From Clostridia bacterium (GTDB lineage: Bacteria; CBDUZB01; JAGLHV01), in the NCBI GenBank assembly GCA_030595925.1, contig JAUVLC010000001.1:1476-65475 (forward strand): 64,000 nucleotides of DNA. Reading direction: 5' to 3'. Shown here one piece after another: positions 34,771-51,518 of this stretch (position 1 is the first letter of the stretch; every line of letters begins with the position of its first letter). A model generated the notes under the pieces. It was not told the origin of the DNA. It saw only the letters and a program-made list of their open reading frames with translations, and did not search any database. Made by a program: the position numbers and the translations under genes.

Positions 34771-35616
34771 TCATTGAAACAACTCCTCAACCATCAGCAT
34801 ATTAGTTCCGTGTGTATGCCACCCTGCTGTACACTCAGTTGCATGGTTATTCTTAACCTGTACATCTATAGTATGCTCACCAGCAGAAATATCCGGAACC
34901 AAAATCATATGGGAAGCAAAATTCATAGACCAGTTTACACCAATAACACCAGTGCCGCCACTAATATAAAGAACCCCATCTCCATCAATTCTTACTCGCC
35001 AATCAGAGGCAGCGAAGGCTGAACTTCCTCCTTGATAGTGACCCAAACAATCATAATAAACTATTCTAAGTACTGAATTATCGTATTTTTTAGTAAAGTT
35101 TAAAATTCTATCCGGATAGGTCGTCCAACTTGTGGGAGTAAGTCGGTTATCAGGCATCCCTTTCATATAAGTAATGTGACTTTTGGGTTTTTCCGAATGT
35201 TCGGCTTTTTCCGAATATAAAGAATATGCTACCCCGGTTAATTCTTCTCTGGGTTTAAGTATTGTTGTCTCTTCTATAATAATCTCTAAATAATATGTTG
35301 CTTCATTCCATTCAATATCCGATAATGATTTGTTACTACCCAATTGATAATTAAATAAACCATTATTTATCAAAACATCCTGCTGTTCACTGTTCCAAAT
35401 AGAATTTCCCCCTGCAGCAACATTATAAATCTTAAACTCTATTGTTTTTGTTCCGTTAACCGGCTCTCCATTTTCTTTCAATTTACCCTGATAATTAATC
35501 TTTCCCGGCAAGCCAGCAAAGAGCAAAGAGCTTTGAGCATAGAGTAAAAAGCAAAAAGCTAAGAGCATTGAGCGTAGAGTAAATGATACGATCCCCTTAA
35601 ACAAAATTTTCTTCAT
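34771..35616 (-). CDS. secreted tail-fibre/adhesin-like protein (paralog of 42723..43661)
   Basis: Signal peptide encoded by the AGAGCWW array; the N-terminal ~120 aa are nearly identical to 42723..43661 (GLPGKINYQGKLKENGEPVNGTK...NGLFNYQLGSNKSL...PREELTGVAYSL). Confidence 0.5.
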   Translation of the reverse strand: MKKILFKGIVSFTLRSMLLAFCFLLYAQSSLLFAGLPGKINYQGKLKENGEPVNGTKTIEFKIYNVAAGGNSIWNSEQQDVLINNGLFNYQLGSNKSLSDIEWNEATYYLEIIIEETTILKPREELTGVAYSLYSEKAEHSEKPKSHITYMKGMPDNRLTPTSWTTYPDRILNFTKKYDNSVLRIVYYDCLGHYQGGSSAFAASDWRVRIDGDGVLYISGGTGVIGVNWSMNFASHMILVPDISAGEHTIDVQVKNNHATECTAGWHTHGTNMLMVEELFQ

Positions 35617-35753
35617 TTTTCCTTCCCCTTTCTTTATTAAGCTAAGAGCTAAGAGCTAAGAGCTAAGAGCTAAGTGCTTAATTAATTTAAACTTAATCTG
35701 TAATTTCTGCATCCTGTATCCTGTATCGTGAATCCTGTATCGTGAATCCTGAA

Positions 35754-36317
35754 TCACCTGATTATCATTATCCTTCCTTTTCTCTTCTCTCCCTGATTAT
35801 TAGTAATTACATATATATACACCCCACTAGAAATATCCTTTGACTTGTCCCACCGATACCTGCCATCTCCATCTGTTTCTTCCAATTCACAAACCTTCTC
35901 TCCCGAAATAGTATAAATTTTAATTTTGGCATAGGGGGTCAGATTGGTAAAAGTAATGCAGGAATGCTTACCGGGTTTAAAAGGAACCGGATAGGCAAAT
36001 ACCTGGTCTAAATTATTTTTCACTGAATCTATATCCCCGGACAAAGATTCCTGACTTACTCCCAAAAAACCCAGAGATAACTCGTAATTCCCTCCATAAA
36101 AAGTACCAACTCCCCCTGGCTGGCCAAAAGAACTTACCAGCTCAAAATCACCCCCTTTTAAAGCAGCAAGACTTCCACTGGCAATAACAGAACTCTCAAT
36201 GGAATAATCCCCACCGGTCAAAGACCATATCAACCCAGCAACTAAAAATAAAAACAACAATACATTTACCACGACTCTACTAATTTTCCCTACCCGAACA
36301 CAACTTGATTTAAACAT
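35754..36317 (-). CDS. small secreted protein with a T9SS-type C-terminal sorting domain
   Basis: The C-terminal ~80 aa (FAYPVPFKPGKHSCITFTNLTPYAKIKIYTISGEKVCELEETDGDGRYRWDKSKDISSGVYIYVITNNQGEKRKGRIMIIR) resemble a Por-secretion CTD and are ~85% identical to the C-terminus of 51716..53698; the start is refined to MFKSS (RBS AAAAAGGAGGG). Confidence 0.6.
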   Translation of the reverse strand: MFKSSCVRVGKISRVVVNVLLFLFLVAGLIWSLTGGDYSIESSVIASGSLAALKGGDFELVSSFGQPGGVGTFYGGNYELSLGFLGVSQESLSGDIDSVKNNLDQVFAYPVPFKPGKHSCITFTNLTPYAKIKIYTISGEKVCELEETDGDGRYRWDKSKDISSGVYIYVITNNQGEKRKGRIMIIR

Positions 36318-36364
36318 TTTCCTTCCCTCCTTTTTTTCATGATTCAAGATACACAATACATGAT

Positions 36365-36757
36365 TCACGATGTAAAGATATTATGTTTCTCCTGAACCGA
36401 CTTAGTAAAATTATAAAGCTTGGCACCTAACTCCTTATAACATTCGTAAAGTTCATTAAATATGGACATAGCTAATGATCCTGTTTCACATAAAAGTTCA
36501 AGATGTACTTTTGTTTCATCACAAGAAGCAATAGCATAAACTAAATATTGAATAAATTCATTTCTATGGCGTCTTCGCCCAAATCCTTCAACAATGTTAG
36601 AAACAATTGATTTAGAAGATCGTCGAATTTGACTTCCCTCTTCATACATTTCAAATTTAGGAATATCTTTCAGTGTCATTTTATGTATTTTTACAGCATT
36701 TTCTTTTGCTAATTGATATATCTCTAAATCCCTATAAGACATTGGCTTTTTACTCAT
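36365..36757 (-). CDS. four-helix-bundle protein (23S rRNA intervening-sequence protein family)
   Basis: MSYRDLEIYQLAKENAVKIHKMT...FPK.E.Y...SQIRRSSKSIVSNIVEGFGRR matches the TIGR02436-type family; RBS GGAGGG. Confidence 0.8.
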   Translation of the reverse strand: MSKKPMSYRDLEIYQLAKENAVKIHKMTLKDIPKFEMYEEGSQIRRSSKSIVSNIVEGFGRRRHRNEFIQYLVYAIASCDETKVHLELLCETGSLAMSIFNELYECYKELGAKLYNFTKSVQEKHNIFTS

Positions 36758-49433: not shown

Positions 49434-49448
49434 ATCAAACCTCAATTA

Positions 49449-49740
49449 GGGTCTGTTGAAAAACCCATCAGTCCCTGATTTCACAGATTAGAAACCAGAT
49501 TACACAGATTAAAACTCGAACGACAAAATCGGTATAATTTGTTCAATATCTGTATAATCAAGGCTTACTGAAAAATTTATATGCAATCAAAAGTGCCCTG
49601 TCTGCGTGCGGACACGCACAGGCAGGAAGGTTTTTGGGTGATTTTGCACAAATTTCGTGCACTTTTAACCACATTTTCGCAGTCATTTGCATATTTATTC
49701 CGTCGATATTTTACATTTGTTTGCATTTTTCAATAAACCT
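49449..49740 (+). repeat. MITE-like element, copy C (with a ~95-bp internal insertion containing a GC-rich hairpin)
   Basis: Aligns with 14150-14355 over GGGTCTGTTGAAAAACCCATCAG...GGCTTACTGAAAAAT...; the insertion is CCCTGTCTGCGTGCGGACACGCACAGGCAGG. Confidence 0.6.
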
Positions 49741-49988
49741 CACTTAATTATAAAATCTTCTGCAAAACAGCTTTCTTTACCTCTAATGCCATTCCTGCCC
49801 TGTATCAAGTCTTTTGTCTCTCCTCCCCTTGTGGGAGGAGATTAAGAGGAGGGAAGCAATTAATATTTTCACCCTCACCTTAATCCTCTCCCCTCAAGGG
49901 AGAGGAAAAACACTTAGATTTGTTACTAAAATTGTGAACCTCTACACTCAGGCGGTGCGGAATGACCCGCTTTATCCACTTAACCAAT

Positions 49989-51518
49989 CTATTTCTTTTT
50001 CTTTATCGTAATTTCCACTATCGCTTTATCCTCATTAATTTCATCACTAAGAGGACCTTTTATAACACACCGGGAACGTGTGGAAAAAACTTCTTTAATC
50101 TTAATTTTTCCTACTTGTACTCTCCCCGGATTGTAAATCACTCCTTTTATATTTTTTTTAATCCTGCGGTCTTCAGAACCTACATTAATTATAATTGCCT
50201 TTACCTCATCATTCCTTTTTTCCACTTCCAATACTTCGGCCCGAATTGTCTCTATTGGCGAAGTTGTTACTACCGGTGGCGAAGTTGTTGCAACTATAAT
50301 TCCTAATTTCATTTTTGCCTTTTTTATCCAATCTTGAATCTTAGAAGATTTTTCATCGAGGCTTTCTGCTTTTACAAAATATTTTAATGATTTTGCATAT
50401 TTTTTTATCGTTTTTGGAGACTTTAATCCTTTTTTTGACTCCACAATTTCTCCCTTTCCAAAATATTTCTTCCCTTTCTTAAAAAACTTCTCTGCCTTTT
50501 GCTTAGTTGGAGGATTTGTTACATCTCCTTCTAACTTTTTTGCACCAAATTTCATACCTAAACTAATCCGGTGACTATTTCCTATATCATTGTTATAAGG
50601 AACATAGGCATAATCTGCAGATAGTTTATCGGAGGAAACCATCCCCATTCCCACTCGCAGGCCATCTCCCAAATCCTGGTTGGATATATAACCCATTCTT
50701 AAATTAAAACCTTTCCAGAAACGGTATTCCGCACCTAAACTAACAAAAAAATCATTATCCAATGGAATATTAAAATCCATCGCCAAATTAAGGCGATTTT
50801 CTAACAACTTAGTTGCTGCCCCCAATTTACAATTCACAGGGAGAGTTTCTCCTTCATCAATAAATTTTATTTTAGTCCCTAAATTCTGAACAGCAATCCC
50901 GATATTTAAAGGCAATTTATAATTAGAAATATTTAACCAGGATAGATTAATCACAGGACTAAATGAGTATAAAAAACCCATATCCAGAGCAAAAGCAATA
51001 GCAGACTCATCACCTAATTGTTGCCGGATAAATTTAAGATTTGCTCCTGCTGATATTCCCAAATCCAGAAGATTTAATCTCTTGTCTAAATCTTTTTCTC
51101 CATAGGACAAAACTAATGCTAAATCCGAAGCACCTACTCCACCTGTAGCATTTCCATCCTCATCATATCCTTCCATTTTACTCATCGAAAGAAAATTTAC
51201 ACTTGCACCCAGGGTCCTTCCATATTTTAAAGGATAAGCAAAAGCAAGAAAATCATGATTAATACCGTCAATCCACTCATTATGCATAAAGGTAATCTCT
51301 TTACGATTTAAATTACCCAGTCCTGCCGGATTCCACCAAATAGTATTCACATCATCAACAATAGCTACACCAGTTTCCCCCATTGCTATTGGTCGTGCAC
51401 CTACACCAATCTTTAAAAAATTCGCTCCTGTACTTCCCGGACCACTGGCGAATGCGCATAAAGCATAGAGCATAGAGCACAAAATAACTACACTTCCTTT
51501 AAACAAAACCTTTTTCAT
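49989..51518 (-). CDS. PorV/PorQ-like (UPF0164) outer-membrane beta-barrel protein with a Lys-rich C-terminal extension
   Basis: Signal peptide, then ANFLKIGVGARPIAMGETGVAIVDDVNTIWWNPAGLG, which resembles the conserved PorV-family N-terminus; alternating beta-strand pattern. Confidence 0.45.
   Translation of the reverse strand: MKKVLFKGSVVILCSMLYALCAFASGPGSTGANFLKIGVGARPIAMGETGVAIVDDVNTIWWNPAGLGNLNRKEITFMHNEWIDGINHDFLAFAYPLKYGRTLGASVNFLSMSKMEGYDEDGNATGGVGASDLALVLSYGEKDLDKRLNLLDLGISAGANLKFIRQQLGDESAIAFALDMGFLYSFSPVINLSWLNISNYKLPLNIGIAVQNLGTKIKFIDEGETLPVNCKLGAATKLLENRLNLAMDFNIPLDNDFFVSLGAEYRFWKGFNLRMGYISNQDLGDGLRVGMGMVSSDKLSADYAYVPYNNDIGNSHRISLGMKFGAKKLEGDVTNPPTKQKAEKFFKKGKKYFGKGEIVESKKGLKSPKTIKKYAKSLKYFVKAESLDEKSSKIQDWIKKAKMKLGIIVATTSPPVVTTSPIETIRAEVLEVEKRNDEVKAIIINVGSEDRRIKKNIKGVIYNPGRVQVGKIKIKEVFSTRSRCVIKGPLSDEINEDKAIVEITIKKKK

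Follow-up and report, generated by a model that had tools for sequence, protein, structure and literature searches.

Predicted signal peptides of three secreted-protein genes are written in an intergenic heptamer repeat of a Clostridia bacterium

The object of this analysis was a 64-kb stretch of DNA from an uncultured Clostridia bacterium known solely from metagenome assemblies (hereafter, the window; contig JAUVLC010000001.1 of assembly GCA_030595925.1), in which the leader regions of three genes for secreted proteins coincide with arrays of a 7-nt repeat. The G+C content of the window is 33%, and since all its genes and open reading frames (ORFs) are located on the minus strand, the N-termini of the three genes are at positions 35616, 43661, and 51518. 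Gene 1 (34771..35616) encodes a secreted protein assigned, from homologues P0002-P0012 and their alignment, to a family hereafter called NYQG, in which the N-terminal module is conserved (...NYQGKLKENG...LFNYQLG...PREELTGVAYS) and the C-termini vary (phage-collar or CTHRC1_C-like). Gene 2 (42723..43661), whose C-terminus is CTHRC1_C-like, is paralogous to gene 1, and gene 3 (49989..51518) encodes an outer-membrane protein of the PorV/PorQ family (Pfam PF19572 PorV, E-value 7.7e-9). Genes 1 and 2 are 46% identical overall, and their leader DNA is 93% identical. An earlier reading of the window (the original prediction) spoke of three secreted proteins with repeat-encoded leaders; all three leaders are indeed array-built, but because genes 1 and 2 are paralogues, they represent two gene families instead of three independent cases.

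The minus strand was scored for in-phase GCTCTWW units, with at least five of seven matches per unit. Gene 1 contained nine consecutive degenerate units at 35518..35580, in codons 13-33 (ACTCTAC, GCTCAAT, GCTCTTA, GCTTTTT, GCTTTTT, ACTCTAT, GCTCAAA, GCTCTTT, and GCTCTTT). Nine in-phase units in the same order were present in codons 13-33 of gene 2 (43563..43625), and four units (GCTCTAT, GCTCTAT, GCTTTAT, and GCGCATT) occupied codons 13-22 of gene 3 (51451..51478). All three are repeats inside an ORF, in runs of nine, nine, and four units whose length of 7 nt is not a multiple of three. Tandem Repeats Finder recovered the same arrays at 35515-35583 and 43560-43628 with periods of 7 and 35 nt (the latter a higher-order period of five units), and at 51456-51479 with a period of 7 nt and 94% matches. 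The pattern consisting of ATGAARA, 24-54 nt, and 2.4 units had three matches in the 64 kb, precisely at the three gene starts, versus 0.00 expected from 100 shuffles. The genes are preceded by the ribosome-binding sites GAAAGGGGAAGG (35621..35632), AAAGGAG (43671..43677), and AAAGGAGG (51526..51533), and, further upstream, by non-coding arrays on the same strand: six GCTCTTA-type units at 35636..35677, four GCTCTWW units at 43682..43709, and 13 at 51540..51630. In-phase scoring confirmed that the coding arrays are oriented like these non-coding ones, as had been claimed, and the quoted peptides FTLRSMLLAFCFLLYAQS and MLYALCAFAS were found to be correct by translation. The statement that the arrays encode the first ~25 codons needs narrowing: they lie inside the leaders, but codons 1-12 (MKKxLFKG...) are not array sequence.

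Signal peptides were assigned by combining homology-defined mature N-termini with the features of the n-, h-, and c-regions. Distant members of the NYQG family have short ordinary leaders that end right before the conserved module (xVPxxINYQG), for example MNKKFKTVFSLLILISILSFKTFA / GVQTKLNYQG in P0008, MKRIAVFIFFILFASHLHA / KVPALINYQG in L126, and MMKKLLTGLATIAISLSAMA / EVPSLINYQG in L132, where the slash marks the predicted cleavage site. Alignment with these proteins places the cleavage of the gene 1 product at ...SSLLFA / GLPGKINYQG, with the whole array within a leader of 34 residues (MKKILFKGIVSFTLRSMLLAFCFLLYAQSSLLFA; 35515..35616). Gene 2 would have a leader of the same length cut before the same sequence (MKKNLFKEIVSFTLRSMLLALCFLLYAQSTLLYA / GLPGKINYQG; 43560..43661). 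The leaders of the 120 PorV homologues listed mostly stop just before GPGTTGANFLK or its variant, and alignment with them puts the cut in gene 3 at CAFA / SGPGSTGANFLK, giving a leader of 24 residues (MKKVLFKGSVVILCSMLYALCAFA; 51447..51518). The AFA/S site of gene 3 obeys the -3/-1 rule; in the LFA / GLPGKINYQG site of genes 1 and 2, Leu at -3 is acceptable, not optimal. The net charge of the first eight residues is +2 to +3 (+3 in gene 1), and the maximum Kyte-Doolittle hydropathy in an 11-residue window reaches 2.5-2.6 within residues 10-27 (2.5 at residues 17-27 in gene 1). With a charged n-region, a hydrophobic h-region, and small -3/-1 residues before a conserved mature N-terminus, the three genes are predicted to carry Sec-type signal peptides for signal peptidase I, each with the array wholly inside the leader. 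In the original prediction, the repeat was taken to encode a signal peptide with its hydrophobic core; this is borne out at the level of sequence, since the homology-placed mature N-termini follow just past the arrays, and the predicted export signals of all three genes have cores written in the heptamer that fills the intergenic regions of the locus.

Array-built leaders are 25-42 residues long in the NYQG family and 24-25 residues in PorV proteins; ordinary NYQG leaders have 19-24 residues. A lipoprotein signal was considered and rejected, as the Cys arising from the TGC reading of the unit is without a preceding lipobox, judged by eye. Scanning of metagenome contigs with the NYQG alignment yielded only relatives with 31-39% identity, from which the mature N-terminus could be defined but which are too distant to reveal 7-bp alleles. 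The protein search with PorV returned no close orthologues, only proteins with up to 45% identity; the search with the leader alone gave nothing at an E-value of 10 or below, and a scan of viral contigs gave no match. No global enrichment of lag-7 periodicity was seen at the protein level across the 120 PorV leaders, an uninformative result because the leader boundaries failed to be set.

Three successive units are read in all three frames, and the resulting heptapeptides are hydrophobic: GCTCTAT gives ALCSMLY, GCTCTTT gives ALCSLLF, and GCTTTTT gives AFCFLLF. The commonest non-coding units make stop codons, GCTCTTA reading ALSS-stop-LL and GCTCTAA reading ALSSKL-stop. Such stop-making units are depleted in the coding arrays: GCTCTTA accounted for 2 of 22 coding versus 67 of 211 non-coding units, and GCTCTAA for 0 of 22 versus 31 of 211. 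Just 29 of the 109 nine-unit windows of non-coding array had an open sense frame. Therefore, the coding arrays are a stop-free subset of the same repeat family.

The non-coding arrays belong to two heptamer families, which are found in nearly every intergenic gap of a cluster resembling contractile injection and type VI secretion systems (window 25378-63928), with up to 44-62 units; the first 25 kb of the window (1-25000), comprising housekeeping operons, contained no such arrays. The GCTCTTA family adjoins the ribosome-binding site and the CAGGATA family the upstream stop codon, with a conserved cagattacagatta-ttaaattaattaag spacer between them. In at least 12 genes, the GCTCTWW arrays finish with GCTTAAW right before the ribosome-binding site. 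These arrays precede genes for cytoplasmic proteins (PAAR, FHA, and baseplate proteins) and are present in both orientations.

Comparison with near-identical contigs revealed differences in the number of non-coding units. Contig L001 corresponds to window 34733-38630 (3.9 kb), and its sole difference is a 14-bp (two-unit) deletion in the array 5' of gene 1. Contig L135 corresponds to window 39751-46644 (6.9 kb) and differs solely by +14 bp at 45039-45084, making the plus-strand TCTTAGTTCTTTAC-type array 3' of the baseplate-J gene (45016..45095) two units longer, and by +28 bp 5' of the PAAR gene, where the minus-strand array (42508..42640; 19 units) is four units longer. Contigs L136 and L137, which span gene 3, had no indel. 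In total, three non-coding arrays were changed by 2-4 units, and the coding arrays were changed in none of the four comparisons. The non-coding differences reflect either real hypervariability or miscounting of repeats by the assembler.

Several other features of these arrays were recorded. Long GCTCTWW arrays in the opposite orientation (plus-strand sense) are located at 32913-33087 and 63752-63919, one of them near a normally oriented array (32678-32726). The start of the CAGGATA-type arrays at 48606-48626 and 36946-36958 coincides with the upstream gene's stop codon or precedes it, and the final codons (KIQDA-stop) and the TGA stop of ORF 48606..49445 are themselves array sequence. ORF 62829..63785 (318 aa) has an N-terminal extension, probably artefactual, which runs through CAGGATA-type units (QDTRYRMHDTGYKIQD) and also spans five GCTCTWW-like units (MPYALSPMLIE) that by chance lack stops in this frame; near 63290 there may be the start of a shorter gene, with a weak ribosome-binding site.

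The DNA of eight NYQG-family members, including genes 1 and 2, was parsed into heptamers. Their leaders contained 9, 9, 6, 9, 12, 5, 9, and 5 units, and the distances from ATG to NYQG were 120, 120, 96, 120, 144, 93, 123, and 93 nt, all multiples of three. Together with those of PorV gene 3 and its ortholog in L002, all 10 leaders were in frame. The leader of P0009 (locus L003) equals that of its near-identical relative P0007 (locus L006; mature DNA 97% identical) plus precisely three units, or seven residues (MLYALSS). In the five-unit forms (L004 and L007), one extra base restores the frame, and an AAT insertion is present in two NYQG-family leaders. Genes 1 and 2 and L003_P5 agree in the number and order of their units, with mature domains only 65-83% identical. 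Gene 2 shares a leader identity of 0.89 and a mature-domain identity of 0.65 with L003_P5, versus 0.66 and 0.89, respectively, with L007_P4. Leader identity is therefore decoupled from mature-domain identity, and the two parts evolve independently.

A further comparison was provided by the orthologous loci L138 (P0008) and L006 (P0007), which have a common upstream gene and carry an ordinary and an array leader, respectively. In both of them, the ribosome-binding site and ATG are at the same place after a short upstream array, which argues that the leader body was replaced or the leader was exchanged, rather than the upstream array being absorbed. The start-codon capture invoked by the original prediction is thus unsupported and is rejected for this pair, the ribosome-binding site and ATG being unmoved between the two leaders.

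A relation between the leaders of the two families is also suggested by the first 33 coding nucleotides of the window PorV gene, of which 16-27 match the NYQG leaders (21-27 for six of the eight), versus 6-15 for eight control genes. This similarity hints at a common cassette of ribosome-binding site, MKKxLFKG, and array in the PorV and NYQG genes. The PorV ortholog in L002 has the same heptamer-phase unit count as gene 3, and no GCTCTWW array upstream; the 13-unit non-coding array of gene 3 is missing at the orthologous position.

Public annotation was affected at two of these genes. The call of P0009 (L003 461-1372) starts at an internal ATG in the array and loses 31 leader residues, so that the protein looked N-terminally truncated in the database; read from an ATG further upstream, which has a ribosome-binding site, the gene is in frame. 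In L002, the public call of the PorV gene (3956-5479) starts 11 codons too far upstream.

Leaders built of other repeats were found in three PorV homologues from other lineages, which were hand-picked by eye from the 120 leaders for their odd appearance and are not a random sample. The arrays, which encode the hydrophobic cores of these leaders, were located by Tandem Repeats Finder. The leader array of L140 (1746-1817) consists of two TCAACTA tracts of 3.9 and 4.3 copies, and the non-coding arrays of this locus have the unit AGTTGAA, in reverse complement. In L141, the leader array (1821-1894) contains 9.4 copies of the 8-mer TCTTACTC, with non-coding TCTCACTC on the same strand, and in L142, 7.3 copies of CTTGTTA (1917-1967) are accompanied by non-coding ACAAGTG, in reverse complement. 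A cross-matrix supported the match of each leader to its own locus. The G+C contents of the three loci are 32%, 44%, and 51%, respectively. Among the genome-scan matches listed, perfect (GCTCTTT)3-5 or (GCTCTAT)3-4 tracts inside signal peptides (e.g., LFALCSLLFAL) were found in unrelated phyla, the taxa including Nitrospirota, Omnitrophota, Alphaproteobacteria, Chitinophaga, and others. Such tracts are located at L029 5647, L033, L059 3333, L060 1268, L065 650, L073, L058 4323, L021 2658, and L040 4251. The pairs L029/L058 and L065/L073, apparent orthologues by N-terminal similarity, agree in the length of the leader or in the number of units. An inverted array copy lies right upstream of the ATG in L040 and could pair with the leader-coding array.

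The best explanation of the window arrays, which we consider probable, is that the three genes carry ordinary Sec-type signal peptides whose hydrophobic cores were written or overwritten by the lineage's own mutationally active intergenic array, in the GCTCTWW sense. The pyrimidine-rich unit would place T or C at most second-codon positions, its three frames giving Ala-Leu-Cys-Ser-Met/Leu-Leu-Tyr/Phe. The core of a signal peptide would be the one place in a protein to tolerate an invading or expanding array, because the core needs hydrophobicity alone. Selection would then retain just the stop-free unit variants and net in-frame lengths, the leaders would turn over by block duplication or slippage, and the cassette of ribosome-binding site, MKKxLFKG, and array could be exchanged among genes of one genome. 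In this way the leaders may have been co-opted from, and homogenised with, the lineage-specific intergenic heptamer array. The direction would be from array to leader, since distant homologues of both families and one orthologous locus have ordinary leaders, and since non-coding units are about 10 times commoner (211 versus 22), precede cytoplasmic genes, and occur in both orientations. Of the two origins that the original prediction had offered, these data favor the recruitment of arrays as leaders over the derivation of arrays from leader sequence. The explanation also draws on a survey of 76 genes with a recognisable ribosome-binding site in the lineage loci: at least four units in the first 150 nt were found in 9 of 20 signal-peptide- or transmembrane-like genes and in none of the 56 others, though 11 of these have an array just upstream. 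The Fisher test (p = 1e-6) is inflated, because eight of the nine array-bearing genes belong to one family.

A number of points weigh against this explanation. The entry of an array into a leader, or the replacement of a leader by it, is an inferred mechanism and was not observed, and the cleavage sites of the three leaders were placed by homology. The 10 leader sequences come from about four samples, with eight of the 10 from one gene family, so that the survey statistic is not independent, and the three further PorV leaders were chosen by eye. In an AT-rich genome, convergence could also explain why PorV and NYQG leaders are alike (MKKVLFKG). Finally, the PorV coding array is conserved in two lineages and the adjoining non-coding array is present in one only; therefore, the coding array there is at least as old.

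The last point would suit the reverse direction, in which leader-coding sequence gave rise to the non-coding arrays, which then spread across the genome, as would the naturally CT-rich composition of sequences coding for signal peptides. We consider this improbable given the excess of non-coding units, their position before cytoplasmic genes in both orientations, and the ordinary leaders of distant homologues in both families; moreover, four lineages each match their own different unit, and four independent seedings from leaders would be needed. It is also rather unlikely that the coding array is an element acting at the mRNA level, which prolongs the function of the array in the 5' untranslated region past the start codon, the hydrophobic peptide being a tolerated by-product. 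Such an element could be a pyrimidine-rich platform, free of structure, to which ribosomal protein S1 or some other binder of single-stranded RNA attaches. It would agree with the non-coding arrays stopping immediately 5' of the ribosome-binding site in many genes, and with the folding of the stretch that spans the upstream and coding arrays, which is no better than that of shuffles in gene 1 (35505-35685, minus strand; z = +0.95) and clearly worse in gene 3 (51440-51635, minus strand; z = +3.31, with 200 of 200 shuffles folding at least as well). However, arrays within coding sequences were found only in genes needing a signal peptide, a restriction that an RNA role does not predict, the L002 PorV ortholog retains its coding array in the absence of the upstream one, and no RNA family or binding protein was identified. 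Scans for Rfam families, sigma-70 promoters, and terminators around the arrays found nothing relevant. The same folding results rule out a hairpin hiding the ribosome-binding site and leave open a role as an unstructured pyrimidine-rich leader. An artefact, that is, periodicity arising by chance from Leu/Ala/Phe codon usage or a mis-called start with the array really being 5' untranslated, is very improbable. Gene callers do misplace starts near arrays, as in P0009, the L002 PorV gene, and ORF 62829..63785, but the pattern had no expected matches in shuffles, the nine in-phase units average 6.2 of 7 consensus matches, and a strong ribosome-binding site lies 4-8 nt 5' of each ATG. In addition, there is no other signal peptide downstream, though all homologues have one directly before the same mature N-terminus.

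The original prediction also saw contingency-locus behaviour in the three genes, with the proviso that degenerate units lower the slippage rate. In the reading weighed here, slipped-strand gain or loss of single 7-nt units would switch expression ON and OFF at high frequency. The arithmetic of this claim holds: computed changes of one or two units lead to truncation, with stops at residues 24-57, and changes of three units keep the frame. The array family is unstable when non-coding (-2, +2, and +4 units between otherwise identical contigs), the number of leader units has changed in evolution, and the extra base in the five-unit forms may be a scar of a compensated frameshift. The coding arrays are, however, impure, lacking the long near-perfect tracts expected of hypermutable repeats. 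Their longest perfect period-7 tracts are 14, 13, and 17 nt (at most 2.4 units), versus 31-35 nt in the non-coding arrays that vary and 41 nt in the purest non-coding array of the window. The number and order of units are identical in genes 1 and 2 and in L003_P5 despite the divergence of their mature domains, and the unit count of the PorV array is the same in two lineages. The comparison of relatives for 7-bp indels, which the original prediction had proposed, showed no coding-array change in the four near-identical contig comparisons, a small sample, and none of the 10 leaders was out of frame; frame-toggling polymorphism was thus absent from these few sequences, all of them assemblies. The present coding arrays appear to be fixed leaders rather than fast ON/OFF switches, although rare switching may still occur. 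For the arrays as they now stand, contingency-locus behaviour is an unlikely and unproven reading.

The closest functional precedent is the opa genes of Neisseria, in which CTCTT repeats in the leader-peptide region cause phase variation by strand slippage (about 1e-3 per cell per generation; PMC3960869; bioRxiv 10.1101/2020.09.16.300947). In both cases, the signal-peptide coding region of an outer-membrane or secreted protein contains a non-triplet CT-rich tandem repeat, GCTCTTA contains CTCTT, and gain or loss of units would shift the frame. Unlike the perfect repeats of opa, the units described here are degenerate, and paralogues and lineages agree in their number; none of the 10 leaders was an out-of-frame allele, and the repeat family, unlike that of opa, fills intergenic regions across the locus. 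In Helicobacter pylori, the hopZ, sabA, and oipA genes have perfect CT dinucleotide tracts in the signal-peptide coding region, with documented ON/OFF alleles. These outer-membrane protein genes likewise have a simple repeat encoding Leu/Ser-rich leader residues, but it is a dinucleotide tract, unlike the degenerate heptamers with in-frame alleles only that we observed.

The non-coding arrays resemble the TAACTGA heptamer direct repeats located 5' of start codons in marine Beggiatoaceae, Cyanobacteria, and some Bacteroidetes, which show indels in 7-nt increments between strains and of which several types may occur in one genome (PMC4679880). The same study tabulates a few "overlap" and "in ORF" cases, and the term "signal peptide" is absent from its main text. 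Like TAACTGA, the GCTCTTA and CAGGATA arrays are intergenic, point to and end near a start or ribosome-binding site, and differ between contigs by 14, 14, and 28 bp, although the latter may be an assembly artefact; the units themselves are different. In Borg elements, fast-evolving tandem repeats are reported to create intrinsically disordered protein regions (PMC9879509). The two cases are alike in that DNA-level arrays become new protein stretches. Borg in-gene repeat units are reportedly multiples of three; in contrast, the unit in the window cycles through three frames and gives a predicted hydrophobic export signal.

No earlier description of these units, or of signal peptides derived from repeats, came up in full-text literature searches. 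Signal peptides tolerate almost any hydrophobic sequence and, to our knowledge, a natural one can rarely be followed back to its source. The hydrophobic core described here leads back to one particular family of non-coding repeats in its own genome. Should this hold more widely, it would offer a concrete, testable route from non-coding repeat DNA to functional protein sequence and would account for the unusually long leaders with 7-residue periodicity in metagenomic proteins. In practical terms, gene callers misplace starts at such arrays, and a non-triplet unit alone does not prove phase variation, for which repeat purity and population data matter.

Taken together with the leaders of L140, L141, and L142, the window arrays raise the tentative possibility that lineage-specific intergenic arrays of 7-8 nt are a recurrent source of new signal peptides in several uncultured lineages, of which most or all possess a type IX secretion system. 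Where the sense unit is pyrimidine-rich, an array could take the place of a leader's hydrophobic core or lengthen it, and the leader cassette could then spread among the secreted-protein genes of the same genome. Such a scheme would span four units (GCTCTWW, TCAACTA, TCTTACTC, and CTTGTTA) and perhaps also the perfect (GCTCTTT)3-5 tracts. If true, signal peptides would have a general route by which they arise de novo from non-coding repeats and evolve in concert.

A small gene for a four-helix-bundle protein (Pfam 23S_rRNA_IVP) is present in the window (36365-36763), L140 (1355-1714), and L141 (1433-1798); the copies of L140 and L141 also match bAvd and adjoin or overlap the repeat-leader PorV gene from upstream. 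Longer repeats were found within two other genes of the window. The LysM-containing gene 40222..41955 has an internal 393-bp tandem duplication (89% identical; 41092-41875), and the NHL repeats of gene 51716..53698 are encoded by DNA repeats of 183-195 bp (52663-53596).

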